A stretch of 64,000 nucleotides of DNA, taken from NCBI GenBank assembly GCA_902826515.1, contig CADEFD010000003.1, positions 968 through 64,967 on the forward strand. The letters run 5' to 3'. A model generated the notes under the pieces. The model saw only the letters and a list, made by a program, of their open reading frames with translations, was not told the origin of the DNA and made no database searches. Source of the stretch: an uncultured Acidobacteriota bacterium. Lineage in GTDB: Bacteria > Acidobacteriota > Vicinamibacteria > Vicinamibacterales > UBA2999. This document shows, one piece after another, positions 1,294 through 44,187 of the stretch. Position 1 is the stretch's first letter, and the number at the start of each line of letters is the position of its first letter. A program made the translations under genes and the position numbers.

Positions 1294-3330
1294 ATGGCCA
1301 CCACCAGTTCCCCGAGGAATCCCTCCCACCTGCTCGTGCCGATCGCGCTCCTGGCGGTCGTCATGCTGATGGTGGTGCCGATGCCGCCGCTGCTGCTCGA
1401 CCTGCTGCTGTCGATCGACATCGGCCTGTCGGTCGTGCTGCTTCTGACCGTGGTCTACGTCAAGAACCCGGTCGAGTTCTCGGTCTTCCCGTCGCTGCTC
1501 CTGCTGCTCACCCTGCTGCGCCTGGCGCTGAACGTCGCCGCCACGCGCCTCATCCTGATGCGGGGCCACGAAGGGGTGGAGGCGGCCGGCCACGTCATCA
1601 TGGCGTTCGGCCAGTTCGTCGTCGGCGGCAACTTCGTCGTGGGCATCGTGGTGTTCCTCGTGCTCATCGCGATTCAGTTCATCGTCATCAACCACGGCGC
1701 GGTGCGCATCTCGGAAGTGACGGCGCGTTTCACCCTGGACGCGATGCCCGGCCGCCAGATGGCCATCGACGCCGACCTGAACGCCGGCGCCATCGACGAG
1801 GCGGAAGCGCGCGTGCGGCGCGACCGGGTGCGGCGCGAAGCCGACTTCTACGGCTCGATGGACGGCGCCATCCGCTTCACGCAGCGCGACGCGCTCGCCG
1901 CCATCCTCATCACCGGCGTGAACATCGCGGCCGGTCTCGTCATCGGCGTGCTGCAGCACGGCGTCGATCTCGCGACGGCGGCCCAGACCTACACCATCCT
2001 GACCATCGGCGAAGGCCTCGTCACCGCCATCCCGGCGCTGCTCGTGTCGATGTCGGGCGGTCTCATCACCACCCGCGCCGCATCGGAATCGCACCTCGGC
2101 GACGACGTCGCCGACCAGTTGCTGGCGCGCTGGCGTCCGCTCGCCGCCGCGGCCGCCGCCCTGGTCGCGCTGGCGCTCATTCCCGGCCTGCCGAAGTTCG
2201 CCTTCATCACCGTGGCGCTCGTGCTCGGCGGCGCCGCCTACGCCACGAAGAACGCGGCGGCGAAGCCGGCCGCGCCGGCGGCCGCCACGCCGGCCGCGGC
2301 GCCCGATGCCCTTGACGGCGGCGTCAACATCGACCCGCTCGGCGTGGAGGTGGGCTACGCGCTCGTCTCGCTCGTCGACGAAGCCCAGGGCGGCACGCTG
2401 CTCGCGCGCATCCGCTCGGTGCGGCGCCAGATCGCGACCGAAACAGGCGTGGTCGTGCCGGCCGTGCACGTGGCCGACAACCTCCAGCTCGGGCCGCGGC
2501 ACTACACGATTCTCGTGAAGGGCGTCGAAGTGGCGCGCGGCGAGCTCTACGCCGACCGGCTGCTCGCCATCAACCCGGGCACGGCCGGCGGCGGCCTCGA
2601 GGGTGTGCAGACGCGTGAACCGGCGTTCGGCCTGCCGGCCCTCTGGATCGGCATCGAGCAGCGCGACCGCGCCTCGGCGGCCGGCTACACGGTGGTCGAT
2701 CCGACGACGGCGCTCTCGACGCACCTCTCCGAGACCATCCGCGTGTTCCTGCCGGAGCTGCTGACCCGGCAGCACACCAAGGAACTCGTGGACCGGGTGG
2801 CGCAGAACTCGCCCAAGCTCATCGAGGAGCTGGTGCCCAAGATTGCCTCGATTGGCGACATCCAGCGCGTGCTGCGCCAGCTGCTGCGCGAGCGCGTGTC
2901 GATCCGCGACCTCACGACGATTCTCGAAGCGGTGGCCGACGCGGCACCCGGCGCCAAAGACACGGACGGCGTGGCCGAGGCGGTGCGGGCGGCCATCGGG
3001 CGCTCGATCTGCCGGCCCTACCAGACCGAACGCGACGAACTGCCGGCCATCTCGCTCTCACCCGCGCTCGAGGAGCGCCTGGTGGCCTCGATCGTCAAGA
3101 CCGAACACGGCGCGGTGCTCGCCATCGACCCGACGCAGGCGCAGCGCCTGGCCTCGCGCATCGGCGAGATCTTCGCCGGGGCGGTGGCACAACCTGTGCT
3201 CTTGTGCACACCGACGTTGCGTCCACACATCTGGCGGCTTTTCGCCAGGGTGCTGCCGCATCTGGGTGTGCTGTCGCACAACGAAGTGCCGCCGCAAGTG
3301 CACGTGGCCTCGATCGCGACGCTGGATTGA
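1294..3330 (+). CDS. flhA: FlhA, flagellar type III export gate protein
   Basis: 678 aa. N-terminal polytopic region, FHIPEP-type block (ISEVTARFTLDAMPGRQMAIDADL), large C-terminal cytoplasmic domain. Follows flhB. Confidence 0.96.
   Translation: MATTSSPRNPSHLLVPIALLAVVMLMVVPMPPLLLDLLLSIDIGLSVVLLLTVVYVKNPVEFSVFPSLLLLLTLLRLALNVAATRLILMRGHEGVEAAGHVIMAFGQFVVGGNFVVGIVVFLVLIAIQFIVINHGAVRISEVTARFTLDAMPGRQMAIDADLNAGAIDEAEARVRRDRVRREADFYGSMDGAIRFTQRDALAAILITGVNIAAGLVIGVLQHGVDLATAAQTYTILTIGEGLVTAIPALLVSMSGGLITTRAASESHLGDDVADQLLARWRPLAAAAAALVALALIPGLPKFAFITVALVLGGAAYATKNAAAKPAAPAAATPAAAPDALDGGVNIDPLGVEVGYALVSLVDEAQGGTLLARIRSVRRQIATETGVVVPAVHVADNLQLGPRHYTILVKGVEVARGELYADRLLAINPGTAGGGLEGVQTREPAFGLPALWIGIEQRDRASAAGYTVVDPTTALSTHLSETIRVFLPELLTRQHTKELVDRVAQNSPKLIEELVPKIASIGDIQRVLRQLLRERVSIRDLTTILEAVADAAPGAKDTDGVAEAVRAAIGRSICRPYQTERDELPAISLSPALEERLVASIVKTEHGAVLAIDPTQAQRLASRIGEIFAGAVAQPVLLCTPTLRPHIWRLFARVLPHLGVLSHNEVPPQVHVASIATLD
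3185..3200 (+). promoter_or_regulatory. Candidate sigma-54 (-24/-12) promoter inside the flhA 3' end, upstream of flhF-fliA
   Basis: TGGCACAACCTGTGCT versus consensus TGGCAC-N5-TTGCW. GG and GC have exact spacing. It lies ~130 nt upstream of the flhF ATG and is near-identical to the element at 42314-42329. Confidence 0.4.
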
Positions 3331-3331
3331 C

Positions 3332-4345
3332 ATGCTGCAGGTCAAAGAGTTCCGCCAACCCACGGTTCGCGACGCCTTTCAGGCGATTCGCGAGGAATTC
3401 GGCCCGAGTGCGGTCGTGCTGGAGAGCGGGCTCGTCAGCGCCCGCGGCTGGCGCGGCTGGGTCGGGATGCGCGAGGTGCGCGTCACCGCCCAGGCCCCGG
3501 AAGGCTGGGAGGCCGACACCGAGCGCCGGCCGGCCGTTCCCGAGCGTCGGCAGGCCGACACCCCGGCGTCGGCGAGCAGTCTCGCGGCCCGCCTCGCCGC
3601 CGCCGGCATCGACCCGGCACTCGCCGACTCGGTGGCGGCCGGTGTGCCGGCGAAGCAGCAGCGCAACCTCACGGCCGACGGCGTCCGCCAGCACCTGGCG
3701 ACGTATCTGACGCCGCACGCCGCCGGCGCCGAGGCGTTTGCCCGCGTCGAGGTCTTCGTCGGGCCGCCGGGGGTGGGGAAGACGACCACCATCGCCAAGA
3801 TCGCGGCCCAGGAGAAGGTGCGCCGCAAGCGTGCCCTGGGCGTGGTCGCGGCCGACGCGTTCCGCGCCGGCGCGGTCGAGCAGCTGCGGACCTACGCCGC
3901 CATCATCGGCGCGCCGTTCCGCACCGCCCGCACCATCGACGACATGGACCAGGCGATTGCCGCCTCGCGGCAGACGCTCCTCGTCGACACCGCCGGCCGC
4001 TCGCCCAAGGACGACGACGTGCGCGACCTGCGCCGCATGCTCGGCCGCCGCGAGGGCGTGCGCACCCACCTCGTGATTCCGGCCGACACCTCGGTGTCGT
4101 CGGCACGGCGCATCGTGGAACGGTTCGCCGACACGCAGCCCGACCGCGTGGTCGTGTCGCGGCTCGACGAAGCGGAGTCGCCGGCGGCGCTCCTCACCTG
4201 GCTGCTCGCGAGCGGCCTGCAGATTTCCTACGTGACCACGGGACAGCGCGTGCCGGAAGACCTCGAGCGCGCCACCCCGGAGGTCCTTGCCGCCGTGCTG
4301 CTCGGCGACGAGCTCGGCGTGCCGACGGCGATGGGCCTGGCGTGA
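3332..4345 (+). CDS. flhF: FlhF, SRP-type flagellar GTPase
   Basis: MLQVKEFRQPTVRDAFQAIREEFG N-terminal B-domain. GTPase motifs VGPPGVGKTTT and LVDTAGRS. ATG lies 2 nt after the flhA stop. The ORF-track start at 2843 is an in-frame extension overlapping flhA. Confidence 0.9.
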   Translation: MLQVKEFRQPTVRDAFQAIREEFGPSAVVLESGLVSARGWRGWVGMREVRVTAQAPEGWEADTERRPAVPERRQADTPASASSLAARLAAAGIDPALADSVAAGVPAKQQRNLTADGVRQHLATYLTPHAAGAEAFARVEVFVGPPGVGKTTTIAKIAAQEKVRRKRALGVVAADAFRAGAVEQLRTYAAIIGAPFRTARTIDDMDQAIAASRQTLLVDTAGRSPKDDDVRDLRRMLGRREGVRTHLVIPADTSVSSARRIVERFADTQPDRVVVSRLDEAESPAALLTWLLASGLQISYVTTGQRVPEDLERATPEVLAAVLLGDELGVPTAMGLA

Positions 4346-4382
4346 TGGCCGGGCGGATGGACAACGACAGGGAGCCACGGCA

Positions 4383-5129
4383 ATGCGTGTAATGAGCGCG
4401 ACTACCGACCAGGACACCGCGGTCCGCGACCAGCTGGTGATGGAACACGTCGGCCTCGTGAAGGCCATGGCGAGCCGGCTCGCCAACCGGCTGCCGCCGC
4501 AGGTCGAGGTCTCCGAGCTCGTGAGCGTCGGCGTGCTGGGGCTCATCGACGCGGCCGGCCGGTTCCGGCCGTCGCTCGGCGTGCCCTTCAGCGCCTTCGC
4601 CCGCCGCCGCATCCACGGCGCGATGCTCGACTCGCTGCGCGGCCTCGACTGGGCGCCGCGCGCGGTGCGCAAGCTGCGGCGCGACGTCGATGCGGCGATT
4701 GCCAACCTGCGCTTCGAACTCGGCCGCGAACCCGAGGCGGCCGACATCGCCCGCGCGCTCGACGTCTCCGAGAGCGACTACGAGAAGATGCTCGATCGCC
4801 TGAAGGTCGCCGAGCTGGCCTCGATCCGGCAGAGCGCGACCACCGAAGACGGCCGCACCGCGCTCGACGTCGAGATCGAACCCGGCGAGGGGCCGCATGC
4901 GCGGCTCGAGCGCGAGGAGATGCGGCGGCTGCTGGCCGGCGCCATCACCGAGCTGCCCGAGCGCGAACGGCAGATCCTGGCCCTCTACTACGAGGAAGAG
5001 CTGACGCTGGCGGAAATCGGCCAGGTCATCGGCGTCGGCGAATCGCGCGTGTCGCAGCTGCGCAGCCAGGCGATTGCCCGGCTCCGCTCGGTGCTCGCCA
5101 CCCGGATGACACGAAAGGACGCGGCGTAG
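4383..5129 (+). CDS. fliA: FliA/WhiG-type flagellar sigma-28 factor
   Basis: Sigma-70 region 2 (LVSVGVLGLIDAAGRFRP), region 3, and region 4 HTH (LTLAEIGQVIGVGESRVSQLRSQAIARLR). Start taken at MRVMS, the internal ATG of ORF 4287-5129. Confidence 0.9.
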   Translation: MRVMSATTDQDTAVRDQLVMEHVGLVKAMASRLANRLPPQVEVSELVSVGVLGLIDAAGRFRPSLGVPFSAFARRRIHGAMLDSLRGLDWAPRAVRKLRRDVDAAIANLRFELGREPEAADIARALDVSESDYEKMLDRLKVAELASIRQSATTEDGRTALDVEIEPGEGPHARLEREEMRRLLAGAITELPERERQILALYYEEELTLAEIGQVIGVGESRVSQLRSQAIARLRSVLATRMTRKDAA

Positions 5130-5133
5130 CCCC

Positions 5134-6117: not shown

Positions 6118-6118
6118 C

Positions 6119-6907: not shown

Positions 6908-7410
6908 CCTCTGTGCTGACCCCGATGGCGGCCGCGGCCGCCGGCCTGGCCGTGCTGTTCGTCGTGCAGATCGTGCTGCTGTGGAAGCTGGCGCGGTCGA
7001 CGCGCGTGACCGCCGATGCGACCGTCCGTGTCGCCCAGCTCACCGCGGCCCTCGAACTGCTGACGGATACCACTGAAGAAGGATTCGTCAATGTGGCGGC
7101 GGAACTTGAACGGCTCGGCGCCAAGCCGCTCGCCGCCGGGTCGACGCGCCGGGCCACGACGCGGCGGATTGCCGCCGCCGTGCGCAAGGGCAAGGCGATC
7201 GAAGACATCGCCAGCGCCGAGGCGCTCTCGGAGAGCGAGGTGCGCCTGCACCTCGGGCTCGAGACGGCCGCCGAGCCGGTGACCGCGCGGGAAGCCGAAG
7301 AGACCGCCGAGCCCGGGCCCGGCGTGCTCGACGATCTCGAACGCTGGATGAACTCGCTCTCGAAGTCCCGCCGTCCGCGGGGAGCCCGCCATGCCGCCCT
7401 GCGCGTCTGA
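6904..7410 (+). CDS. Hypothetical flagellar-operon protein: N-terminal TM helix plus HTH-like segment
   Basis: ATG overlaps the fliN stop. TM segment AAAAAGLAVLFVVQIVLLW. Later IAAAVRKGKAIEDIASAEALSESEVRLHLGL resembles a short HTH. From memory it resembles DUF2802-type proteins of flagellar loci; this is unverified. Confidence 0.5.
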   Translation: MTSVLTPMAAAAAGLAVLFVVQIVLLWKLARSTRVTADATVRVAQLTAALELLTDTTEEGFVNVAAELERLGAKPLAAGSTRRATTRRIAAAVRKGKAIEDIASAEALSESEVRLHLGLETAAEPVTAREAEETAEPGPGVLDDLERWMNSLSKSRRPRGARHAALRV

Positions 7411-8245
7411 CACCTGCACGCGGCCGTCGCGGTGGTGGCGCTTCGGCGTCACGCGCGGGGCCACGCTCGACGGGCAGTGGCACTGCTCGCAGGGCTGCGT
7501 CGAGGCGGTCGTCCGCGAACGCCTGCACCTCGTGCCGGCCAGCCGCGACGTGCGGCCGCGCCTGCCGGGCATCCGCCTGGGCGCGCTGCTGCGGCATCAG
7601 GGCGCGGTGCATCCCGAACAGCTGACGGCGGCGCTCGAGGCGCAGACCGAAAGCCGGCTGCGGCTCGGCGAGCAGCTCCGCTCGATGGGCGCCGTCGATC
7701 CGCAGGCGCTCCTGCGCGCGCTGGCCGAACAGGCCGGCGTCAGCTACCTCTCGACCGTGGACGTCGCGCGGGTGCACGACGCTCCCGGAGGCCTGAACCT
7801 CGATGCGATCCAGGCGCTGCGGATCGTGCCGATCGGGCCGCCCGAGTCGGGCCGCATCCGCGTGGCCTTCCCGGCGCCGGTGCCGCGCACGGCGCTCACG
7901 ATCTTCCGCCAGCAGACCGGCTGGATGCCGGAGCCGTATCTGGTCGGCGACGACGAGTGGCTGGCGCTGCTCGAACACTACGGCGCCACGTCGCGCGGCC
8001 GCGTCCCGGCCGAAACGGTCTCGATGGGCTTCGCGCGCGAGCGCGATCCGCAGGAAGCGGCGCGCCGGCTGGCGCAGGTGGTCATGGCGACCGGCGACGC
8101 GCGGATGCGCGACGCCCGCTGGGGCCACTACGTGTGGGTGCGGCTCCAGGGAGCCGGCGCGGGTTTCGATTTGTTGCTGGACCAGGCCCCCGAGGGCCGG
8201 CCGGAAGGAGCAGGACCATGGCAGGCGGCCACTACGTCGCGCTGA
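7391..8245 (+). CDS. Zn-ribbon plus T2SSE_N/MshEN-like domain protein (putative c-di-GMP receptor)
   Basis: CxxxxC...HCxxxC at the N-terminus. Residues 62-114 form two RLGxxLxxxGxVxxxxLxxxLxxQ repeats separated by 5 aa. The downstream part follows the T2SSE_N-like pattern (LRALAEQAGVSYL..IQALRIVPIG..IRVAFPAP). No ATPase domain. Confidence 0.6.
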   Translation: MPPCASDTCTRPSRWWRFGVTRGATLDGQWHCSQGCVEAVVRERLHLVPASRDVRPRLPGIRLGALLRHQGAVHPEQLTAALEAQTESRLRLGEQLRSMGAVDPQALLRALAEQAGVSYLSTVDVARVHDAPGGLNLDAIQALRIVPIGPPESGRIRVAFPAPVPRTALTIFRQQTGWMPEPYLVGDDEWLALLEHYGATSRGRVPAETVSMGFARERDPQEAARRLAQVVMATGDARMRDARWGHYVWVRLQGAGAGFDLLLDQAPEGRPEGAGPWQAATTSR

Positions 8246-8934: not shown

Positions 8935-8952
8935 CAGTTCCGAGGAGTCGTT

Positions 8953-11181: not shown

Positions 11182-11183
11182 CC

Positions 11184-12308: not shown

Positions 12309-12313
12309 GAGCA

Positions 12314-12360
12314 GGGGCTCGGGGCTCGGGGCTCGGGACTGGGAGCTCGGGGCCAGGGAC
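12314..12360 (+). repeat. (GGGGCTC)x3 tandem heptamer plus degenerate G-tracts in the flgI-flgJ spacer
   Basis: GGGGCTCGGGGCTCGGGGCTCGGGACTGGGAGCTCGGGGCCAGGGAC read directly from the sequence. There are at least 6 G3-4 runs on the sense strand. Confidence 0.8.
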
Positions 12361-13240: not shown

Positions 13241-13252
13241 CGGCCGCGGTAC

Positions 13253-15368: not shown

Positions 15369-16255
15369 TGCGGGTCACCTTCCGGACCGCCTACGGCGGC
15401 AGCGAATACCTCGAGGCGTCGTCGAGCCAGATGGCGAAGGCGCGCCAGCAGGTGATGAGCGGCAAACGGGTCGAGAAGGCGAGCGACGACCCGGCGGCGA
15501 TGCAGCGGTCGGTCGAAGGCCGCGGCGAAATCGGCGCGCTCGAGACCTACTCGCGCACGGCCGATTCCGCCCTCGCGAAGCTCACCACCATGGACACGGT
15601 GCTCGGCGCCGTCGTCGACAAGCTCCAGCAGGCCAAGGTGGCCACCGTGTCGGTGCAGGGCTCGATCGCCACGACGCAGCAGCGCGAGGCCGCGGCGCTC
15701 ACCCTCGAAGGGATCCGCGACGCCCTCGCCGCCGACCTCAACACCGAAGTGCGCGGCGCGTATGTCTTCGCCGGCAGCCAGGCGACCACGCCGCCGTGGG
15801 CGAAGATCGCCGGCTCGTGGACCTATCAGGGCAACGCCGCGCCGGTCGCGGTGGACATCGGCCCCGGCCAGACGGTGGACGTGGCGCTCGACGGCCAGGC
15901 GCTCGCGCAGGGCACCGACGCCACCAACGTGCTCAACGAACTCGAGACGCTCATCGTGGCCGTGCGCGCCGGTGACAACCCCGGCATGGCCGCCGGCACG
16001 GCCGCCATCGACCGCGCCTTCGTGCGGGCCACGCGCGCGCAGAGCTCCGTCGGCGTGGACGAGCAGGGCATCGACGAACGCCAGCTCCAGATCACGTCGG
16101 CGCGCCTCTCGGTCGTGACCCGCGTGTCGAAGGACGAGGATGCCGACCTCGCGCTCGCCATCTCCGAGATGAACCGCGCGCAGACCGCCTACCAGGCGGC
16201 GCTCGGCGCCATCGGCACCGCGTCGCGCGCCTCGCTTCTGGACTACCTGCGATGA
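15368..16255 (+). CDS. flgL: FlgL, hook-filament junction protein 3
   Basis: Flagellin-like N-terminus (MRVTF..QMAKARQQVMSGKRVEKASDDPAA) and C-terminus (DADLALAISEMNRAQTAYQAALGAIG). Follows flgK. Confidence 0.9.
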   Translation: MRVTFRTAYGGSEYLEASSSQMAKARQQVMSGKRVEKASDDPAAMQRSVEGRGEIGALETYSRTADSALAKLTTMDTVLGAVVDKLQQAKVATVSVQGSIATTQQREAAALTLEGIRDALAADLNTEVRGAYVFAGSQATTPPWAKIAGSWTYQGNAAPVAVDIGPGQTVDVALDGQALAQGTDATNVLNELETLIVAVRAGDNPGMAAGTAAIDRAFVRATRAQSSVGVDEQGIDERQLQITSARLSVVTRVSKDEDADLALAISEMNRAQTAYQAALGAIGTASRASLLDYLR

Positions 16256-16695
16256 CCACCGCGCCGCCGCTCCCGCCGGCCACCGTCGAGACCCGCTTCG
16301 GCACCTTCCCGGTGGCCGCGGCCGACATCGTGCACTTCGCGCACGGTCTGCCCGGCTTCGAGTCGTGCCGCCAGTTCGTGCTCATCGCGGCGCCGGAACT
16401 GCTGCCGTTCACCTGCCTGCACGGCATCGACGCGCCGGGACCCTCGTTCCTCACGCTCGATCCGCGGCAGATCGTCGCCGGATACGCGTCGCCCCTCGGC
16501 GCCGCCGAACGCCACCGCCTCGAGGCGGCTCCCGAGGAGCCGCTGCTGTGGCTCGCGATCGTGCACGTGGACGATCTGGCCATCACCGCCAACCTGCGCG
16601 CGCCGATCGTCATCAACCCGCGCCGCATGCTCGGCCTGCAGGTGATGGGGGCCGACACCGCGTGGGCCACCGATCACCTCCTGACGGACGAGTAG
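16252..16695 (+). CDS. fliW: FliW, flagellin-binding assembly factor and CsrA antagonist
   Basis: VETRFGTFPVAAADIVHFAHGLPGFESCRQFVLI...ITANLRAPIVINP is a typical FliW. Immediately precedes csrA. Confidence 0.9.
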   Translation: MTTAPPLPPATVETRFGTFPVAAADIVHFAHGLPGFESCRQFVLIAAPELLPFTCLHGIDAPGPSFLTLDPRQIVAGYASPLGAAERHRLEAAPEEPLLWLAIVHVDDLAITANLRAPIVINPRRMLGLQVMGADTAWATDHLLTDE

Positions 16696-16699
16696 GGCG

Positions 16700-16951
16700 A
16701 TGCTGGTCTTCACACGCAGGCGCGACGAAGCCATCGTCATCGGCGACGGGATCGAGGTGCGCGTGCTGCGCACCGGCAAGGACGCCGTGCGCATCGGCGT
16801 CACCGCGCCCACGCAGGTGCTCGTGCACCGCCGCGAGGTCTACGACGCCGTGCGCGCCGCCAACCAGACCGCCGCGCAGGCGGTGCTGCCGCCGGTGGCG
16901 CACCTGGCCGGCCGGCTGCGGCTGCAGCCGCCGCTCGAGCGCGTGGAGTAA
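16700..16951 (+). CDS. csrA: CsrA, carbon storage regulator (flagellar-type with C-terminal extension)
   Basis: MLVFTRRRDEAIVIGDGIEVRVLRTGKDAVRIGVTAPTQVLVHRREVY. 83 aa, longer than the 61-aa enterobacterial type. Confidence 0.95.
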   Translation: MLVFTRRRDEAIVIGDGIEVRVLRTGKDAVRIGVTAPTQVLVHRREVYDAVRAANQTAAQAVLPPVAHLAGRLRLQPPLERVE

Positions 16952-18831: not shown

Positions 18832-20196
18832 TTAGAGCGACGCCCCGAAGTTCGCGAGTGATCCCGACTGCCCCTGCAGCTGGCTCATGGCGGCGTCGGC
18901 GGCGATGAACTCGCGCTGGAGGGCGGCACGGCGCACCGCCAGGCGGTTCTGCATGTTGGCGATCGAATCGGTCAGGCGCGTCGCCTGTTCGGTCATCTGC
19001 TTGCGCGCGCCAGGGATCATGCCGTCGGTTTGCGTGTAAGCGTCGAGCTGCGTGTCGAGCGTGGCGAACGCTCCGGGAATGCCGGTGGAGCCTGCAAACA
19101 GCTTCTCGATGTCGGCGGTGCCCGAGGCGAGCGCCGAGGTCAGCCTCGCTTCGTTCAGCTCGAGGGTGCCGGTCCGCGTGAACTCGATGCCCACCTGTGA
19201 CAGCGCCGAGAAGGCGCCGCCGGTGCCGAACTGGCCGACCAGCGTGGACCGGATCTGGTCCTTGATCTGGCGCAGCAGCGGGTCGCGGCCGATGCTGGCT
19301 GTGTTGCCGTTCTGCGCCGACGTGCCCTGCTCGGTCACGAACTTCTGGAAGTCGTTGTACGCCTTCACGAAGTCCTGGATCTTCGTCTTGACGCCGGCGG
19401 TGTCGGTGGCCACGTCGACGACGATGCTCTTCGTCGGGTCCTTCTGGAAGGCCGTGATCGTCACGCCCGGCACCGCCGAGGTGATGGTGTTGGTGGTGCT
19501 CGTGATCGGGATGTTGTTCACGAGCAGCGACGCGTCGCTCGCCTGCACGGCGTTGTCGGCGGCCGAGTCGCCCGAGATGCCGTCGCTGTCGTCGTCGCCG
19601 AAGCTGACGCCGGAGCCGCCCGTGAGGTTGTTGGTGATCGTGAAGGCGTTGGCCTGGCCGGTGTCCTTGGCCGACAGCACGAGCCGGTAGCTGGACGGCC
19701 CCGACTGCACGACGCTCGCCCGCGCCGGCGGATTGCCGGCGGCGTTGATGGCGTCGGCGAGCTGGCGCAGTGTCGTGGATCCGGCCAGGGTGACCGTCAC
19801 GCCGCCGATCGTGATGGTGCCGCCCGAGGCGACGACCGTATCGGGATCGGGCGCAGCGGTCGTGGACGCGGTGACCTGCGCCTTGGCGAGCTCGTTCACG
19901 ACCACGTCGTAGCGGCCGGGAATCGCCGCGGACGTGGCCGAGACCGAGAGAGCCGACGTGTTGCTGCTCGTGGCGGTATACCCGCTGAGCTGCGACGTAT
20001 CGGCCAGTTTGGCGGCCGCCTGCTGCACGGCCAGGGCGCGCGTCGTCAGCGTGCCGAACGTGGCCGCCTTCGACTGCAGCGCGGCCTGCCGGTTCTGCAG
20101 CGCGACCAGCGGCTGACTCTCCTGAGTCATGATGATCGACAGGATCTGGTTGAAATCGATCCCGTTGGCGCCACTGAACGTGATGGGCGAACTCAC
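18832..20196 (-). CDS. fliD: FliD, filament cap protein
   Basis: SGANGIDFNQILSIIMTQESQPLVALQNRQAALQSKAATFGTL at the N-terminus. C-terminal RRAALQREFIAADAAMSQLQGQ. GTG start with a GAAGGAGGA RBS. Confidence 0.93.
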   Translation of the reverse strand: MSSPITFSGANGIDFNQILSIIMTQESQPLVALQNRQAALQSKAATFGTLTTRALAVQQAAAKLADTSQLSGYTATSSNTSALSVSATSAAIPGRYDVVVNELAKAQVTASTTAAPDPDTVVASGGTITIGGVTVTLAGSTTLRQLADAINAAGNPPARASVVQSGPSSYRLVLSAKDTGQANAFTITNNLTGGSGVSFGDDDSDGISGDSAADNAVQASDASLLVNNIPITSTTNTITSAVPGVTITAFQKDPTKSIVVDVATDTAGVKTKIQDFVKAYNDFQKFVTEQGTSAQNGNTASIGRDPLLRQIKDQIRSTLVGQFGTGGAFSALSQVGIEFTRTGTLELNEARLTSALASGTADIEKLFAGSTGIPGAFATLDTQLDAYTQTDGMIPGARKQMTEQATRLTDSIANMQNRLAVRRAALQREFIAADAAMSQLQGQSGSLANFGASL

Positions 20197-20244
20197 ACGT
20201 CCTCCTTCACCGGCCCTGGACGCGGGCCAGTCCCCAAGAAAAGC

Positions 20245-20260
20245 TGCGAAAACCCTGCCA
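20245..20260 (-). promoter_or_regulatory. Candidate sigma-54 promoter upstream of fliD
   Basis: Minus strand reads TGGCAGGGTTTTCGCA. The GG-N10-GC spacing is exact. It lies ~50 nt upstream of the fliD GTG. Confidence 0.4.
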
Positions 20261-20269
20261 ACGTGAAAG

Positions 20270-20300
20270 GACGGGCAGGCGGTGGGGGCGCCCGCCCGTC
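20270..20300 (-). terminator. GC-rich hairpin after fliC (possible terminator or attenuator)
   Basis: GACGGGC...GCCCGTC 7-bp stem plus inner GC pairs. On the minus strand it is followed by CTTTCAC, only a short T run. Confidence 0.35.
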
Positions 20301-20344
20301 ACTTCACTGATCCGTCACCCCGGCGAACCGGGGCGCTCCGGGGT

Positions 20345-21142
20345 TTACCGGAGGAGCGACAGCACCTGCGAGCTCTGCTGGTTGGCCTGCGCGAGGGCGG
20401 CGATACCGCTCTGCGTCAGGATGTTGTAGCGCGCCAGGTTGGCCGACTCTTCGGCCACGTTGGCGTCGCGGATGCGGCTTTCGGCGGCCTTGGTGTTGAC
20501 CGCCTGATACTGCGCCAGGCCGGTCGCGTACTGGAGGCGGTTCTGCAGCGAACCGACGCTGCCGACCACGGTGCCGACCGTGCCGACGGCCGTCGTGATC
20601 GCGGTGACCGCGCTGGCGGCGCCGCCCGCGGTCGAGATGTTCAGCGCGGCGATGCCCAGCGTGGTGGTATCGGCCGCGCCGATGGTGCCGCCGACGGTGC
20701 CGGAGGCGCCGCTGCTCACGAAGACCGAGAAGCCCTGCGCGGTGCCGAGACCGGCCACCGTGACTTCACGGGCGATTTCCGAGACCACGTCGGTGAACTC
20801 GTTGTTCAGCGTGGTGCGGTTGCCGGTGAACCCGGCCGAGGCCGACTGCGACGCCAGCGTCGCGAGACGGTCGAGAAGCGTGCTCACGTTGTCGAGCGCG
20901 CCGTTCTTGATCTGCAGCGTGGAGAGTCCGTCGTTCGCGTTACGAATGCCCTGGTTGAGAACCGCCTGTTCCGACCGGTACGAGTTGGCCACCGCGAGGC
21001 CGGCCGCGTCGTCGCCCGCCTGGTTGATGCGGAAGCCGCTCGACAGCCGCGTGAGGGTGCGCTGCAGGCCGATGTTCGTCGTGTTGAGGTTCGCCTGCGC
21101 GTTCTGCGCCGACACGTTGCTGACAACTGAGAATGAAGCCAT
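20345..21142 (-). CDS. fliC: Flagellin (short, 265 aa)
   Basis: MASFSVVSNVSAQNAQANLNTTNIGLQRTLTRLSSGFRINQAGDDAAGLAVANS...IRDANVAEESANLARYNILTQSGIAALAQANQQSSQVLSLLR. GGAGGAG RBS. The ORF-track start at 21307 is an upstream extension. Confidence 0.95.
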   Translation of the reverse strand: MASFSVVSNVSAQNAQANLNTTNIGLQRTLTRLSSGFRINQAGDDAAGLAVANSYRSEQAVLNQGIRNANDGLSTLQIKNGALDNVSTLLDRLATLASQSASAGFTGNRTTLNNEFTDVVSEIAREVTVAGLGTAQGFSVFVSSGASGTVGGTIGAADTTTLGIAALNISTAGGAASAVTAITTAVGTVGTVVGSVGSLQNRLQYATGLAQYQAVNTKAAESRIRDANVAEESANLARYNILTQSGIAALAQANQQSSQVLSLLR

Positions 21143-21150: not shown

Positions 21151-21185
21151 TCCTCCGTGAGTCCGGGCCGGCGTCCCTGCCGGCC
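21151..21185 (-). promoter_or_regulatory. Putative CsrA binding sites in the fliC 5' leader
   Basis: Leader RNA has hairpin GGCCGGC-AGGGAC-GCCGGCC (21166-21185) presenting GGA in its loop. It also has CACGGAGGA overlapping the Shine-Dalgarno (21151-21159). Confidence 0.5.
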
Positions 21186-21221: not shown

Positions 21222-21248
21222 TAATCGGAGGTCGCCCGCGGAGCTTTA
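21222..21248 (-). promoter_or_regulatory. Sigma-28-type promoter of fliC
   Basis: Minus strand reads TAAAGCTC-N11-TCCGATTA versus TAAAGTTT-N11-GCCGATAA. It lies ~80 nt upstream of the fliC ATG. Confidence 0.65.
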
Positions 21249-21266: not shown

Positions 21267-21282
21267 TGGCATGGATCCGGCT
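21267..21282 (+). promoter_or_regulatory. Weak sigma-54-like element upstream of the glycosylation operon
   Basis: TGGCATGGATCCGGCT. The GG/GC spacing is correct but the -12 region is poor (CGGCT). It lies 26 nt upstream of ATG 21308. Confidence 0.2.
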
Positions 21283-27319: not shown

Positions 27320-28035
27320 GTGCCCGCGCTGCCATCGTCGTTCAGGCCCGTATGGGCTCGTCCCGCCTGCCCGGCAAGTCGCTGGCGCCGATTGCCGGCC
27401 GGTCGCTGCTGGCGCACGTCGTCGAGCGGCTGGCCGATCAGCGGGAGCTCCCGGTCGTGCTCGCCACGACGACGCTCCTCGAAGACGACCTGCTCTGCGA
27501 CGAAGCCGACCGCCTCGGCATCGCCGTGCTGCGCGGCTCGGCCGACGACGTGCTCGGGCGCTATGCGTTCGCGGCGTCGCTGCTCGGCGTGCCGGCGATC
27601 ATCCGCGCCACCGCCGACAACCCGGCCGTGGACCTCGCCGCGGCCGTGCGCACGCTCGACATCCTGCAGCGGTCCGGCGCCGACTACGTCGTGGACTACG
27701 GCCTGCCCACCGGCGCGACCGTCGAGGCGATGAGCGTGCCGGCGCTCGTGCGCGCGGCGGCGCTCGCGACCGACGCCTACGACCGCGAACACGTGACGCC
27801 GTTCATCCGGCGCGACGGCCGCTCGCGGGCCGTGGACGCGCTGGCGCCCACAGAGCTGCGGCGGCCCGACCTCCGCTTCACCGTCGATACGCCCGAAGAC
27901 CTCGACTACATGCGCCGGGTCTACCTCGAGGCCGGGCCGGCCGAACGGCCGTGGCCGCTCGCCGCGCTCATCGCCGCGGCCGACCGCGTGCGCGAACGCG
28001 CCGAACTCGAACAGACGGGAGCAGATGCGCGGTGA
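27316..28035 (+). CDS. pseF: Cytidylyltransferase (PseF/SpsF-like CMP-nonulosonate synthetase candidate)
   Basis: AIVVQARMGSSRLPGKSLAPIAGRSLLAHVVERL...LRGSADDVLGRY is an acylneuraminate cytidylyltransferase-family N-terminus. Confidence 0.6.
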   Translation: MSARAAIVVQARMGSSRLPGKSLAPIAGRSLLAHVVERLADQRELPVVLATTTLLEDDLLCDEADRLGIAVLRGSADDVLGRYAFAASLLGVPAIIRATADNPAVDLAAAVRTLDILQRSGADYVVDYGLPTGATVEAMSVPALVRAAALATDAYDREHVTPFIRRDGRSRAVDALAPTELRRPDLRFTVDTPEDLDYMRRVYLEAGPAERPWPLAALIAAADRVRERAELEQTGADAR

Positions 28036-28862
28036 CGACGCCCCGACGTTTCTCCGACGCCGCGTTCCTGTTCAGCGTGCCGCTGACGGTGGCGCTCGTC
28101 GTCGGCGCGCAGTCGCTCGACGGCGGCCGGCTGGCGACGCTGCTGCAGCCGGCGGCGGCCCTCATCGTCTTCGGCGGCACGTTCGTGGCGGTGGTGTTCA
28201 GCTTCCCGCTGCAGCTCCTCGCCCGCACCGGCCGGGCGCTGGCGGCGGCGTTCGGACGGCGGCCCGAGTCGGACACGGCGCTGCTGGCGCGGATGGGGGA
28301 GTATGCGACGCGCGCCCGCACGCGCGGCAAGCTGTCGCTCGAGAACGAACTGGGGAAACACGACGATCCGTTCCTGCTGCGCGCGCTGTCGCTCCTCGTG
28401 GACGGCGTGCCGGCGGCCGACGTGCGCCACACCCTCAAGACCTTCAGCCAGGTGCGCGAAGAAGCCGATGCCGAATGTGCGCTCGTGCTCGAAGCCGCCG
28501 GCGGCTACGCCCCCACCCTCGGCATCCTCGGCGCGGTGCTCGGCCTCATCCAGGCCATGGATCACCTGACGACGCCGGCCAGCGTCGGCCCCGGCATCGC
28601 CGTGGCGTTCGTGGCCACGGTCTACGGCGTCGGCGCCGCCAACCTCGTGTTCCTGCCGCTGGCGACGCGGCTGCGCAGCCTCGGCCGCCAGGCCGCGCTC
28701 AGCCGTGAAGTCGTGATCGAAGGCGCCGTCGCCATCCAGCAGGGCATCCATCCCACGCTCGTCGACGGACATCTGCGCAGCCTGCTCATGGCCTGGCACG
28801 GCGCCCCGCACTACGCGGTGCCGACCGAGGCCACGACGCGGGCCCGTCTGGTGAAGTCATGA
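28032..28862 (+). CDS. motA: MotA/PomA-family stator protein (set 1, PomA/MotP-like)
   Basis: GGYAPTLGILGAVLGLIQAM...GPGIAVAFVATVYGVGAANLVFLPLATRL (MotA/TolQ/ExbB channel helices). GTG start in a GTGA overlap with the upstream stop. Confidence 0.85.
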   Translation: MTTPRRFSDAAFLFSVPLTVALVVGAQSLDGGRLATLLQPAAALIVFGGTFVAVVFSFPLQLLARTGRALAAAFGRRPESDTALLARMGEYATRARTRGKLSLENELGKHDDPFLLRALSLLVDGVPAADVRHTLKTFSQVREEADAECALVLEAAGGYAPTLGILGAVLGLIQAMDHLTTPASVGPGIAVAFVATVYGVGAANLVFLPLATRLRSLGRQAALSREVVIEGAVAIQQGIHPTLVDGHLRSLLMAWHGAPHYAVPTEATTRARLVKS

Positions 28863-29548
28863 ACATCCGGCTCTCCGCCACCCAGGTCTCGCGCGACCGC
28901 TGGCTCATCTCGTACGCGGACTTCATGACGCTGCTCTGCGCGTTTTTCATGACCGTCTACGCGGCCACCCTCGCCGAGACGCCGGCGGCCACGGCCGCCG
29001 CGCCCGTCGCCGCGGCCGCGCCGGCCGTCGAGACGGCGCCCGAGCCGCCGCCGGTCGATCCGTCAGTCGCGCTTCGCGAACAGGTGGAGCGGGCGCTGGC
29101 GCCGGAACTTGCCGCGGGATACCTGCAGCTCGTCGAGGATCCGCGCGGCCTCGTCATCGAAGTGCCCGAAGCCGGCGCGTTCGATGTGGGGCAGGCGGCG
29201 CTCGCGCCCGAGGCGCAGGCGATGCTCTCGCGCATCGCGACCATGCTCACGACGCTGCCGAACGCGGTGCGCATCGAAGGCCACTCCGACACGACGCCGA
29301 TCCGCACGCCGCAGTACGCGTCGAACTGGGATCTCTCGACCGCGCGCGCGACCAGCGTCGTCGAGTTCCTCGTGACCACGGCGGGCCTCGTGCCGTCGCG
29401 GCTGTCGGCCGCGGGCTACGCGGAGTTCAAGCCGCGCGCCTCGAACGACACGCCGGAGGGCCGGGCCCGCAACCGTCGCGTGGACCTCGTGCTGCTGAAC
29501 GACGCGACGGCACGCGCCGAGGAACCGGCAGGGAGCCTGCGGCCATGA
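28859..29548 (+). CDS. motB: MotB/PomB-family stator protein (set 1) with OmpA-like domain
   Basis: RWLISYADFMTLLCAFFM (conserved Asp in the TM helix). C-terminal OmpA motif (IEGHSDTTPIRT..NWDLSTARATSV...NRRVDLVLL). Confidence 0.9.
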   Translation: MNIRLSATQVSRDRWLISYADFMTLLCAFFMTVYAATLAETPAATAAAPVAAAAPAVETAPEPPPVDPSVALREQVERALAPELAAGYLQLVEDPRGLVIEVPEAGAFDVGQAALAPEAQAMLSRIATMLTTLPNAVRIEGHSDTTPIRTPQYASNWDLSTARATSVVEFLVTTAGLVPSRLSAAGYAEFKPRASNDTPEGRARNRRVDLVLLNDATARAEEPAGSLRP

Positions 29549-31829: not shown

Positions 31830-31942
31830 GCACGCCGCGATGTCGGCGCGGCGACGGGCGCCGCGCGGCCAAGGGTCGGCGGACCGACATCCACAGGGTG
31901 CGAATTGCACAGGATTGTCGCCCGTGACCACCGCTACCTGAA

Positions 31943-31958
31943 CGGCACACTCGTTGCT
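31943..31958 (+). promoter_or_regulatory. Candidate sigma-54 promoter upstream of the pyruvyltransferase-MTase gene
   Basis: CGGCACACTCGTTGCT versus TGGCAC-N5-TTGCW, with exact spacing. It sits in a ~220-nt gap after the GT4 gene. Confidence 0.45.
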
Positions 31959-32051
31959 CAGTTGACGGGCATGGTTCTCCCAACCGTCCGTCACGAAGTT
32001 CCGCCGACCGGCGCCGACGCCGGACACCAGCGGCGCACCGGCCCGGCCACG

Positions 32052-33629: not shown

Positions 33630-33637
33630 GGTCCGCC

Positions 33638-35551: not shown

Positions 35552-35578
35552 GCCGCCGTCGCCGCTGCGGCCCCGTCC

Positions 35579-41402: not shown

Positions 41403-41408
41403 GGGGCC

Positions 41409-42275
41409 TCAGGCGCGTGCGGGCAGAGCCGGCGCGTATTTGAAGTAGTCGACCCATGCCGGGGCCGCGCTCACGGTGGCGTCGAAGATGGCCACCGCGT
41501 CGTCGACCTGCCCGAGCGACAGGCAGAGCGAGACGAGGTTGCACTGCTGGGCGGTCCATTCGCGGCCGCCGGGCTCGAATCGCTGCGCGCGCGCCGCCAG
41601 CGCGCGCAGCCGATCGGCGCCGAGATCGCGCAGGCGCGCCGGCAGTTCGCCGGGGGCCAGAGGCCGTTCCCACCGGTAGTAGGCCGTGGCCCACGGCATC
41701 GATCCCATGTAGGTGACGTGGTCGGCCAGCAGCTCCATCGTGATCGAGATCCAGGGCGTGTGCGGCCAGTGGTAGTCCTGCTGGATCACCGTGGAGACGC
41801 CCGGGATGAGGCGCGGGAAGAACTGCGCGACGAGGAAGTCGTTGGTCTCCCAGCTCTTGGCCACGTCGATGAAGAGGATCTCGATCGGCGTCGGCTCGGG
41901 CCATGGGAACGTGGCGATGTCGCCTTCGTGGACGGTCACGAACGAGGCGACGTCCGCGATCGTGCGGTCGTAGACGGGCCGCGTCGAGGCGCCTTCCGGC
42001 ACGCCATCGACGAACTGGCGCGCGAAGTGATCGGCCACGAAGATGTCGTAGGAATGGACGCGACCCGCGCGTTCGGCGACGCGCGGGTTGTCGCGCAGGC
42101 CGGTGGCCAGGGCCAGCGTCGACCCGCCCAGGAACGCGCCGCCGTCGATGATCTCGCCGCGGCCCGTGTACGAGTCGCGGGCGAGCGTGTAGAGCAGCTC
42201 GAGTTCCTGCGCGCTCAGCATCGTCCGCGCCTGGCGGACTTCGGGGGGGAGGAGTGTGGATTCGGCGGGTCTCAT
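41409..42275 (-). CDS. Methyltransferase-like (class I fold) hypothetical protein
   Basis: EIIDGGAFLGGSTLALATGL...IEILFIDVAKSWETNDFLV has the same overall layout as the Methyltransf_24-like genes downstream. Start taken at MRPAEST with a GGAG RBS. Confidence 0.4.
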   Translation of the reverse strand: MRPAESTLLPPEVRQARTMLSAQELELLYTLARDSYTGRGEIIDGGAFLGGSTLALATGLRDNPRVAERAGRVHSYDIFVADHFARQFVDGVPEGASTRPVYDRTIADVASFVTVHEGDIATFPWPEPTPIEILFIDVAKSWETNDFLVAQFFPRLIPGVSTVIQQDYHWPHTPWISITMELLADHVTYMGSMPWATAYYRWERPLAPGELPARLRDLGADRLRALAARAQRFEPGGREWTAQQCNLVSLCLSLGQVDDAVAIFDATVSAAPAWVDYFKYAPALPARA

Positions 42276-42313
42276 GGGCGCTCCGGGTGTGTGTGGATCT
42301 CGTCTGGAGCGAC

Positions 42314-42329
42314 AGCAACGGTTGTGCCA
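42314..42329 (-). promoter_or_regulatory. Candidate sigma-54 promoter for the MTase / GT-MTase / MTase / sulfotransferase operon
   Basis: Minus strand reads TGGCACAACCGTTGCT (15/16 to TGGCACG-N4-TTGCW). It lies ~40 nt upstream of ATG 42275, in the 163-nt gap after maf. Confidence 0.55.
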
Positions 42330-42438
42330 GCACTGCCGGATCGCCGACCCCGCAAGACGACGGTGTGAAACGTGCGGTGACGGCGGGCGCGGCATGTCGG
42401 CGTGCCGGCCGCGTCCGGAACACCGACACCAGGAGGTG

Positions 42439-44049
42439 TCAGGCCGGCTGGCCGGACGACAGCACCCGGCGGATCTCGTCCGCCGTCACGGCGCCGGCGG
42501 AGAAGTCCATCCACTGCGCCAGGGTCTCGCGGGCGCCGGGAGAGGTGGGCTGCGCGAGGAGCTCGCGACGCCGGGACGTAAGGCCGTCGTGGGGCCGCGC
42601 CTGCGCGCGGGCCGACCGCAGGATGTCGCGGACGTGGCCGCCGAGGGGCGCGTGCGGCCCGAGGACGTCGTGGAGCGTGGCGTGTTCGAGGTTCGCGCCG
42701 TGCAGGATGCCGGCGCCGGTGGTGTTCACGTACCGCCGTGAGCTGTCGGCACTGACCTGCTGGCACAGCCAGTCGCGAAAGGAGATGAGGTGCGGTGAGG
42801 TGAGGACCGGCCGGCCGTGCAGGTCCGGCACGCGCAGATCGGCGAGGCGTCCGAAGTAGTCGTCGACCAGCTGCTCCCACGTGCAGCCGTAGGTCGCCAT
42901 CGCCTCCCGCCACGTCGCGTCGTAGATGGTGTTGGCGCAGTACGGGCGTCGCACCGGATACGACAGGTCGAGGCCGGCGAACACGATCGGCGCGCAGCCG
43001 AGACGCACCGCAAGATCGAAGGCCGTCGTGACCACCGACCCCCACGCGCGCAGCGTGCCGCGGTCGAGCCCGGCGGCGCGCAGCCACGGCCAGGGCTCGT
43101 GGTCGCTGACCTTGAACACGAAGGTGCGGCCGGCGAAGCCGGTGAACGCCGAGGGGTGCAGGCTGCCTTCGGCGGCCAGGAAGATACCGTCCAGATCGTC
43201 GACGCCGGCGAGATGGCGCGCGTTCAGCTCGGCCGGATCGACACCGGCGACGAGGTGGGGCCGTACGCCACCGGCCAGCAGTGGCCGCAGCGTCGTGTCG
43301 GCGCCGATGACGACGGCACGATCCTGGAGCGCCGCCAGCGCCGGCAGCTGGTCGTCGAGCGAGGGTCCGGCACCGACGATGACCGCCGGGTGACCCGCCA
43401 GCAGCCCGTCCAGTGCGGCCGCATCCCCTTCGCGCGCGATGACCGGAAGATTGGCCAGCGTCTGCAGGAGGTACCGTCCAGCGAAGCGCCGGCGCGCGTC
43501 CGCATTCGCCCGGGCCTCGGCGACCAGGCGGCCGGCCACGGCCTCGGCGGCCTTCGCGTCCGCGGCGCGACAGGCGGCCAGGGCGCCGTTCACGATCAGG
43601 GTCGGCGGCGCGCTCACATCGACGAGGCGTCCGCAGTTCATCGCTCCGCCGTAGTCGGGACCCGTGAGCAGACACAGGCGGCCGTTCGTGATCCACGACG
43701 TCAGGTCGCGTCGCGCGAGCAGCAGCGCCGCGATGCCGGGGTCCGGTTCGAGCAGCACGAGGCGCGTGGACGCGCCCGATCGTTCGAGGTCGTCGATGAA
43801 CTCGCCGAGGGCCGGCCCGATGACGAAGAGCTGGCGGGGCCAGGTGGCGATGCGGGGGGCGTTGAGCGACTGCCACTCTCCCGTGGGGTGCCGCAGTTCC
43901 AGGCGCACCCCGTCCGCGCCATCTGCCACGGCCCGGGTGTGCGCCTCGTCGAGGCGTGCCAGCCCGGGGCGTTGTCCCTGCGCGCGTTCGAGCGCGGCAA
44001 GATTGGCGGCAAGGGTCGTCTCACTGAACACGCCAGATCCGGACTGCAC
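42439..44049 (-). CDS. maf: Maf-family (DUF115/MptE-like) motility accessory factor, putative flagellin nonulosonic-acid transferase
   Basis: AVIVGAGPSLDDQLPAL..AVVIGADTTLRPLL...GSVVTTAFDLAVRLGCAPIVFAGLDLSY is a typical DUF115 core. It is the C-terminal third of the artefactual 1523-aa ORF 42439-47010. The start is uncertain (GTG 44049 or 44031). Confidence 0.65.
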   Translation of the reverse strand: MQSGSGVFSETTLAANLAALERAQGQRPGLARLDEAHTRAVADGADGVRLELRHPTGEWQSLNAPRIATWPRQLFVIGPALGEFIDDLERSGASTRLVLLEPDPGIAALLLARRDLTSWITNGRLCLLTGPDYGGAMNCGRLVDVSAPPTLIVNGALAACRAADAKAAEAVAGRLVAEARANADARRRFAGRYLLQTLANLPVIAREGDAAALDGLLAGHPAVIVGAGPSLDDQLPALAALQDRAVVIGADTTLRPLLAGGVRPHLVAGVDPAELNARHLAGVDDLDGIFLAAEGSLHPSAFTGFAGRTFVFKVSDHEPWPWLRAAGLDRGTLRAWGSVVTTAFDLAVRLGCAPIVFAGLDLSYPVRRPYCANTIYDATWREAMATYGCTWEQLVDDYFGRLADLRVPDLHGRPVLTSPHLISFRDWLCQQVSADSSRRYVNTTGAGILHGANLEHATLHDVLGPHAPLGGHVRDILRSARAQARPHDGLTSRRRELLAQPTSPGARETLAQWMDFSAGAVTADEIRRVLSSGQPA

Positions 44050-44171
44050 GTTCCGTACCGGTGCGACGGCGCGGCGGACGCGTGGTGGCGACCCGACGTG
44101 GCACCGGCGCCGGCGTCGGCGCATCGACACCTGTGGACCCGCCCGGCCTGCAAAGTGCGGCGCGCCGGGGA

Positions 44172-44187
44172 GGGCACGGCATTTGCG
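44172..44187 (+). promoter_or_regulatory. Candidate sigma-54 promoter upstream of motA (set 2)
   Basis: GGGCACGGCATTTGCG. GGCACG-N4-TTGC matches the consensus core with exact spacing. It lies ~90 nt upstream of the ATG. Confidence 0.4.

Follow-up and report, generated by a model that had tools for sequence, protein, structure and literature searches.

In Pseudomonas putida, the sigma-54/FleQ promoters include an internal promoter, PflhF, located inside flhA, and PfliD (bioRxiv 10.1101/2021.08.29.457346). In Helicobacter pylori, the Maf-family gene jhp0106 is expressed from the RpoN-dependent flaB promoter (PMC5368276). RpoN was present in all three Acidobacteria genomes surveyed in a previous report (PMC3372290), and sigma-54 is almost universal in diderms with lipopolysaccharide (PMC3162934). 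Our literature searches on sigma-54 and flagellar regulation in Acidobacteria and Vicinamibacteria found nothing relevant. In this study, we analysed a 64-kb stretch of DNA (hereafter the window; 72% G+C) from an uncultured Acidobacteriota bacterium, a soil acidobacterium of the Vicinamibacterales lineage, which carries a flagellar and flagellin-glycosylation gene cluster. A sequence-only reading had proposed six sigma-54-type -24/-12 elements in this cluster, and all six 16-mers are present at their coordinates and on their strands. We found that the core bases of these elements are conserved across relatives, and the elements at 3185, 20245, 42314 and 31943, at least, are likely to be functional sigma-54 promoters. 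Our confidence is lower for the element at 21267 and lowest for that at 44172.

The window resembles Pseudomonas in several respects. A sigma-54-type element is located in the flhA coding sequence upstream of flhF, another lies between the flagellin gene and fliD, the late genes (flagellin and motAB) have FliA/sigma-28 promoters, and fliA is downstream of flhF. The internal flhF promoter in flhA and the separate fliD promoter, both of sigma-54 type, correspond to the Class II layout of FleQ/FlrA-type systems. The phylum is different from that of Pseudomonas, no fleQ or fleSR was found in the window or the related loci scanned, a FliW-CsrA module is present, and the 46-nt gap between flhF and fliA (4346-4391) holds no gene for flhG/fleN, a MinD-type ATPase. 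The locus also resembles the RpoN-FlgR regulon of H. pylori and Campylobacter in that Maf-family and flagellin-glycan genes stand behind sigma-54-type promoters and CsrA is part of the flagellar circuit. Unlike that regulon, the flagellin in the window is of sigma-28 type, and unlike H. pylori, in which maf is on the flaB promoter, maf and two tailoring operons are each preceded by a separate promoter and a palindrome. H. pylori FlgR is not known to need an enhancer.

The window was scored with a 16-nt sigma-54 position weight matrix (PWM; background 72% G+C, maximum score 24.9). The pattern under test was GG at -25/-24 and GC at -13/-12, 10 nt apart, within TGGCAC-N5-TTGCW. Gene names were assigned via Pfam and a gene map based on G+C at third codon positions (GC3), and the gene context agrees with that of the sequence-only reading. 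The six sites ranked 1, 2, 3, 4, 6 and 7 among 127,970 positions. The sequence-only reading had missed a sixth strong candidate, P_maf, together with the maf gene that it precedes. The seven sites, with their scores, are as follows.

3185 to 3200, + strand: P_flhF, sigma-54 -24/-12 element TGGCACAACCTGTGCT, in the 3' end of flhA; PWM score 17.4, rank 2
20245 to 20260, - strand: P_fliD, sigma-54 element TGGCAGGGTTTTCGCA, 48 nt before the fliD GTG (20196); PWM score 15.3, rank 3
21267 to 21282, + strand: P_sugar, weaker sigma-54-like element TGGCATGGATCCGGCT, 26 nt before the first gene (21308); PWM score 11.8
31943 to 31958, + strand: P_pyr, sigma-54 element CGGCACACTCGTTGCT, before the operon pyruvyltransferase/methyltransferase (MTase), GGDEF-EAL, GT4; PWM score 13.8, rank 4
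42314 to 42329, - strand: P_MTase, perfect-consensus sigma-54 element TGGCACAACCGTTGCT; PWM score 18.6, rank 1
44045 to 44060, - strand: P_maf, sigma-54-like element CGGTACGGAACGTGCA, 13 nt before the maf GTG (44031); PWM score 10.7
44172 to 44187, + strand: P_motA(54), weak sigma-54-like element GGGCACGGCATTTGCG, 91 nt before the motA ATG (44278); PWM score 12.6

Only the site at 42314 is a perfect consensus; the remaining sites carry one to three deviations, mostly at -15/-14 or -26. Three sites scored at least 15, against 0.49 expected (0 of 100 shuffles). In intergenic DNA, which makes up 4.8% of the window, five matches scored at least 11.5, compared with 0.236 expected (0 of 1000 shuffles of those regions). 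All intergenic matches at this threshold were sense-oriented with a gene start 13-91 nt downstream, and the best anti-oriented intergenic score was 3.2. For the 29 region-strands facing a gene start, the maxima were 18.6, 15.3, 12.6, 11.8, 11.6 and 9.2, with the rest at or below 3.3; for the 25 facing no gene start, the maximum was 3.2.

Such matches may also arise by chance, as GG-N10-GC and TGGCA-like strings are frequent at 72% G+C and the best-looking ones may have been picked. The counts of loose patterns fit this explanation. GG-N10-GC alone occurs 1,720 times in the window, and its spacing is uninformative at this G+C. NGGCA-N7-NGCN occurs 115 times, with 7 of the 115 in non-coding DNA, which is the chance share, and TGGCAC-N5-TTGCW with up to two mismatches gave 13 matches where 19.75 +/- 4.1 were expected. 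Some high scorers are also spurious, for example 40672 (12.9), which lies antisense within a gene. Chance does not account for the 20-fold concentration of high scorers in sense-oriented intergenic DNA, for the cores kept with variable spacers in 3-35 diverged genomes, or for the rare codon frozen inside flhA, and we consider it very improbable as the general explanation. For 3185, 20245, 42314 and 31943 it is refuted by the conservation described below, and it is a candidate explanation for 44172 or 21267. The motif frequency, which the sequence-only reading had offered as a test, gave a divided answer: the bare or loose pattern is at chance level, and the high-quality PWM matches are above it.

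Two further strings, at 59187-59202 and 58694-58709 (both - strand), have TGGCAC and no -12 GC. They were rejected as sigma-54 promoters, and chance may well apply to them. They precede a REC-only response regulator gene and a GGDEF-EAL gene, and the 59187 site has TGGCACGAATCC in common with the sugar-operon promoter of two relatives (L098 and L099).

P_flhF lies 132 nt before the flhF ATG (3332) and within the last 45 codons of flhA. The site is flhA coding sequence, as the sequence-only reading had placed it, and the predicted start is at about 3211. A metagenome scan with FlhF gave 80 loci, from which 35 unique high-G+C relatives with FlhF identity of 86-43% were analysed. TGGCACA[A/G]CC[T/C]GTGCT was located 129-132 nt before flhF in 35 of 35. 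The element was not present in more distant lineages, despite their QPV[V/L]LC.

A codon-aware analysis anchored on AQPVLLC was then used to compare the DNA with the protein. The residue preceding Ala was V in 28 relatives, M in 4 and L in 3, and its codon was always xTG (n = 35). The Ala codon was GCA in all 35, although GCA accounts for just 4.3% of Ala codons in the rest of these tails. The Val codon was GTG in 35 of 35, and the Leu codon was always CTN and never TTG. The Gln codon in the spacer varied (CAG 23, CAA 12), and Pro was encoded by CCT in 27 and CCC in 8 and never by CCG, which accounts for 68% elsewhere. Pairwise identity at other invariant four-fold sites was only 46%. The degenerate positions that are frozen are thus -26 T, -25 G, -22 A, -13 G and -12 C, and the spacer positions drift. 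Since the bases read by sigma-54 are frozen and the spacer is drifting, these results indicate selection on the DNA and not on the protein.

A constraint on the RNA or on translation, such as the structure of the mRNA, a ribosomal pause ahead of the FlhA C-terminus or coupling to flhF, might also freeze codons at this site without a promoter. P_flhF is in coding sequence, the last 121 nt would serve as the flhF leader, and the rare codons GCA, CCT and CAA cluster there. However, the frozen bases match the sigma-54-critical positions one for one, and the third bases of Gln and Pro vary. The residue before Ala also changes among V, M and L with TG kept, which is the signature of a DNA motif, and an internal sigma-54 PflhF has a precedent. 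A constraint of this kind therefore appears highly unlikely, and P_flhF would be a clean example of a promoter kept in coding sequence via synonymous-site selection across deep divergence. In three loci of a lower-G+C lineage with FlhF about 30% identical (L062, L076 and L085), we also observed TGGAAC-N5-[T/C]TGCC 72-128 nt before flhF. A sigma-54-type promoter before flhF may therefore be widespread beyond the clade.

The region from fliD to the sugar operon was compared with four syntenic relatives, L097-L100, over 21-kb loci. TGGCA[G/A]-N4-TTTCGCA was found 46-49 nt before fliD in all four, and its spacer varies. In L101, which is more distantly related, TGGCTTGGCATTTGCA lies just 11 nt before fliD. 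On the other side, the -24 element of P_fliD is abutted by the following feature.

20263 to 20307, - strand: terminator-like hairpin of the flagellin gene with a 12-bp GC stem, kept in L097-L100

The free energy of the 84-nt region containing this hairpin was -52.6 kcal/mol, with a z score of -4.96. A second hairpin was observed immediately ahead of the Shine-Dalgarno sequence in the predicted fliD leader (20197-20234, - strand), both in the window and in L097-L100; its stem shows compensatory changes between genomes by eye, and the fold in the window has a z score of only -1.07. P_sugar heads an 11-gene nonulosonic-acid/stator operon, and TGGCA[C/T]G-N4-CGGCT precedes this operon in the same four relatives with scores of 11.8-14.2. 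P_fliD and P_sugar are among the three best PWM matches of each 21-kb locus.

The glycan island was compared in five loci anchored on a GT4-MTase fusion. P_MTase lies within the 163-nt gap between maf and the MTase gene, 38 nt before the ATG at 42275. It is conserved in four further distinct genomes at 38-45 nt from the ATG, with scores of 18.6 in the window, 17.7 in L102 and L103, 15.6 in L104 and 13.9 in L105, which has the same sequence as L012. The spacers differ (AACCG, GTCGG, ACGGG and GTCGC). In the alignment, which has a mean identity of 63%, the blocks CTGGCA, TTGC, CGG..CCGACA and GGAG..ATGAG are invariant. The sequence-only reading had pointed out that two sites share TGGCACAACC. 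This is a coincidence and no functional extended motif, because the orthologues of the MTase promoter carry different spacers. A - strand open reading frame at 43876-42272, which would enclose this best site, was rejected as a wrong-frame, arginine-rich artefact because the GC3 phase picks the Maf frame ending at 42439.

P_pyr reads CGGCAC-N5-GTTGCT in the window, L102 and L103 (score 13.6 in the latter two), and an in-frame ATG follows 12-13 nt later in each. The predicted start at about 31969 would therefore fall at the conserved start codon at 31971. The site is intergenic if the gene start is moved to the ATG at 31971 or 32052. The GGDEF-EAL gene belongs to the same operon by synteny in three genomes. 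P_maf, a conserved block in the alignment of this region (A1), is kept in 5-6 genomes with scores of 12.5 in L102, 11.2 in L104, 14.5 in L105 and 15.2 in L106. Its consensus, CGG[T/C]ACGGAACGTGCA, is located 13-15 nt before a conserved maf start, GTG TTC AG. The predicted leaders of 28-120 nt (fliD and MTase) contain a Shine-Dalgarno sequence, and the transcripts predicted to start on the start codon (maf and pyruvyltransferase) lack one. The motA element appears as GGG[C/T]AC-N5-TTGCGA in three genomes (the window, L102 and L103), which differ in its spacer and in how far it lies from the sigma-28 promoter. One of the further loci, L011 (CAZZGM010000048.1), is labelled 'uncultured Bifidobacteriaceae', has 73%-identical acidobacterial glycan-island orthologues and 67% G+C, and is probably mis-binned.

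Upstream of the glycan promoters we found a palindrome, GTCGG-N4-CCGAC, at three places in the window (distances run from its midpoint to base 1 of the 16-mer).

31875 to 31888, no strand assigned: exact palindrome GTCGGCGGACCGAC, candidate upstream activating sequence (UAS) of P_pyr, centre 61 nt upstream of the -24 element
42396 to 42409, no strand assigned: palindrome with one mismatch, GCCGGCACGCCGAC on the - strand, candidate UAS of P_MTase, centre 73 nt upstream
44115 to 44128, no strand assigned: palindrome with one mismatch, GTCGGCGCATCGAC, a conserved block between the divergent P_maf and P_motA

The palindrome is rare, with 0-3 exact copies per locus. Nine of the 13 exact copies in seven loci were located 40-110 nt upstream of a site scoring at least 10.5, compared with 0.22 expected (0 of 2000 permutations). 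The distance to P_MTase is 71-73 nt in five genomes, with exact copies in L102-L105, and that to P_pyr is 61 nt in the window and 80 and 81 nt in L102 and L103, which also have exact copies. A third promoter in L105 follows at 81 nt and one in L011 at 100 nt. The one-mismatch copy between the divergent promoters is 50 nt from P_motA and 61 nt from P_maf; the block around it, GTGTCG[G/A/C]T[G/C]CGCCGACGCCGG, is kept in the window, L102 and L103 and is exact in L103. The distances thus cluster near 50, 61, 72, 81 and 100 nt, which approximates helical-turn steps. The palindrome was not found at the flagellar promoters examined.

We also considered the palindrome as a terminator of maf and rejected this. 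It has no T-run and occurs in divergent regions without an upstream gene end (L011 and maf/motA), and no stable RNA fold was found at 42396-42409; the unremarkable z score of 0.05 argues against a terminator. The layout is similar to that of NtrC/DctD/ZraR-type promoters, which have an inverted-repeat UAS about 80-150 bp upstream: the inverted repeat is at about -75 to -125 from the predicted start, and its pairing with the promoter is conserved across genomes and several promoters. Unlike in those systems, a single copy per promoter is evident. We know of no activator site that matches GTCGG-N4-CCGAC. The palindrome may be bound by an activator that acts only on the glycan-tailoring promoters. 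As these promoters have it and the flagellar promoters lack it, a different activator is implied. The claim that glycan tailoring is under RpoN-type control is thus supported by conservation, and the added claim that it is controlled like the middle-class flagellar genes is probably incorrect, given that the palindrome is absent from the flagellar promoters.

Besides the loose-pattern counts given above, several points weigh against the sigma-54 interpretation. The PWM was reconstructed by us after the compilation of Barrios et al. 1999, with approximate frequencies. Orthologous loci share ancestry, and the conservation counts are therefore non-independent events. The -12 elements are imperfect at three sites, with GTGC at flhF, where the Val codon forces it, TCGC at fliD and CGGC at the sugar operon. 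The spacer between flagellin and the sugar operon is 83% identical overall, and conservation of the P_sugar motif proves little for this reason. L106 lacks P_MTase and L011 has a weak form of it, so this promoter is not universal in the clade. The motA element scored below 10.5 in L103 and adjoins a good sigma-28 promoter, and in relatives its positions -26 and -23 are G and T. Finally, no RpoN box, GAFTGA or Walker-A motif of an enhancer-binding protein (EBP) was found in the window or in 107 related sequences (901 kb), and no lineage-directed RpoN database search was made. The statement that the window has no EBP gene thus held, and the presence of rpoN and an EBP in this genome is predicted only from phylum-level literature.

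The absence of RpoN and EBP genes from the DNA scanned would also fit elements that are real and read by another factor, either a transcription factor or a sigma factor of the extracytoplasmic function (ECF) type; the palindrome would then be a conventional operator for a repressor or an activator. The GGAAC in P_maf is typical of an ECF -35 core, genes for an ECF sigma and anti-sigma pair are present at 62405-63224, and the -12 regions depart from TTGC at the three sites named. However, the invariant positions are the sigma-54 determinants (GG at -25/-24, A at -22, G/C at -13/-12) with a fixed 10-nt spacing, and the intervening bases vary. The elements are also asymmetric and always point at the downstream gene, and PflhF inside flhA and PfliD are sigma-54-dependent in Pseudomonas. 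An ECF -10 at P_maf would place the start inside the conserved maf N-terminus. No sigma-70-type promoter match was found in the three key regions scanned. We therefore regard another factor as improbable and favour sigma-54. Core bases were kept and the spacer was free across relatives at the tested promoters, which is the sigma-54 signature. Cross-species conservation of the cores, with diverging spacers and surroundings, supports the -24/-12 reading for the flhF, fliD, sugar, MTase and pyruvyltransferase operons.

The late genes form a contrast class. T[A/C]AAG-N15-CCGATT, a TAAA-N15-GCCGATAA-like pattern, occurs in four copies in the window, all at sensible places.

21222 to 21248, - strand: sigma-28-type flagellin promoter TAAAG-N15-CCGATTA, kept in L097-L100
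44208 to 44234, + strand: sigma-28-type motA promoter TCAAG-N15-CCGATTG, strongly kept in L102 and L103
46045 to 46071, + strand: sigma-28-type promoter motif before a HisKA/REC gene, after motB
47670 to 47696, + strand: sigma-28-type promoter motif before a GGDEF gene downstream of motB

The motif thus precedes late flagellar genes, and fliA is present. These results suggest that the signalling genes downstream of motB belong to the late flagellar class. Tandem sigma-54 and sigma-28 promoters had been proposed for motA. This proposal is plausible, given the strong conservation of the sigma-28 promoter and the conservation, too, of the weaker sigma-54 element. The flagellin 5' leader (21151-21185, - strand) contains a conserved hairpin with GGA in its loop (GGCCGGC-AGGGAC-GCCGGCC), and the Shine-Dalgarno sequence that comes after it is GGAGGA. 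Two sites arranged in this manner are typical of CsrA repression, and fliW-csrA is at 16252-16951.

The main genes of the window, identified by Pfam, are as follows.

1294 to 3330, + strand: FlhA
3332 to 4345, + strand: FlhF-type GTPase
4392 to 5129, + strand: FliA
18832 to 20196, - strand: FliD
20345 to 21142, - strand: flagellin
41409 to 42275, - strand: MTase, promoter-proximal in the MTase operon
42439 to 44031, - strand: Maf (MptE-like), between the MTase operon and motA
44278 to 45150, + strand: MotA, followed by MotB

The + strand carries flhB, flhA, the FlhF-type GTPase gene, fliA, fliM/N, rod/ring genes, flgM, flgK/L, fliW and csrA, and the - strand fliS, fliD and flagellin. The 11-gene sugar operon (+ strand) includes a DegT aminotransferase, a NeuB-type synthase, a CMP-sugar transferase, a MotA/MotB pair, a PseB-like dehydratase and a GT4. 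It is followed by the + strand trio of pyruvyltransferase/MTase, GGDEF-EAL and GT4, the - strand operon of sulfotransferase, MTase, GT4-MTase fusion and MTase, and motA and motB with signalling genes behind them. The MotA/MotB-type stator pair in the sugar operon (28032-29548, + strand) is flanked by the CMP-sugar transferase and the PseB-like dehydratase, and the same arrangement is kept in L097-L100, L102 and L106. Two open reading frames near flhF-fliA (6913-7410 and 7391-8245) have no Pfam match. The region 51965-56820 has a G+C of 63-65% compared with 72%, contains five open reading frames without a Pfam match, adjoins a tRNA gene (56748-56820, - strand) and looks like an integrated island. 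Exact matches to the proteins of the window were limited to short metagenome contigs. FliD relatives were an Acidobacteria bacterium (89% identity) and Vicinamibacterales bacteria (55-67%), and the best-matching genome locus was a Vicinamibacterales metagenome-assembled genome.

Taken as a circuit, the flagellar and flagellin-glycosylation cluster would be transcribed from at least two promoter types. The late genes (flagellin, motAB and the downstream signalling genes) would use sigma-28-type promoters, and six to seven other units would use sigma-54 -24/-12 promoters that need an ATP-dependent EBP encoded elsewhere in the genome. P_flhF, P_fliD and probably P_sugar would form a flagellar class with no recognisable upstream palindrome (class F). 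In this class, P_flhF would drive flhF-fliA-fliM and the genes that follow, P_fliD would act directly after the flagellin terminator, and P_sugar would serve the nonulosonic-acid operon. P_maf, P_MTase and P_pyr, and perhaps the weak motA element, would form a glycan-tailoring class (class G). The predicted extent of the P_MTase unit is MTase, GT4-MTase, MTase and sulfotransferase, and that of the P_pyr unit is pyruvyltransferase-MTase, GGDEF-EAL and GT4. The palindrome 50-100 nt upstream of the -24 element in class G is placed as would be expected for an enhancer at which a dedicated activator acts.

As a tentative extension, which we hold to be possible and somewhat short of an even chance, Vicinamibacterales might run a second dedicated sigma-54 circuit, in which one EBP reads GTCGG-N4-CCGAC independently of the activator of the flagellar structural genes. 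Its targets might be maf, the methyl-, sulfo-, pyruvyl- and glycosyltransferases, the GGDEF-EAL cyclic di-GMP (c-di-GMP) enzyme and possibly the second stator, partly through near-leaderless transcripts. If true, the cell could re-decorate or re-power its flagellum when it receives a separate signal.

No principle is overturned by these results; in other phyla, flagella and the cell exterior are well known to be under sigma-54 control. The kind of regulation is the same as that familiar elsewhere; the phylum is new, and the additions are the palindrome-linked glycan class and the predicted near-leaderless sigma-54 transcripts. Acidobacteria are a dominant and mostly uncultured soil phylum, and the literature that we searched describes nothing on the regulation of their motility. 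A three-part promoter logic can be predicted from sequence for the whole order, consisting of sigma-54 flagellar promoters, sigma-54 glycan promoters that have a separate enhancer, and sigma-28 promoters of late genes. GTCGG-N4-CCGAC would provide a cis-element for tracing the activator that may link flagellin glycan tailoring and c-di-GMP turnover.

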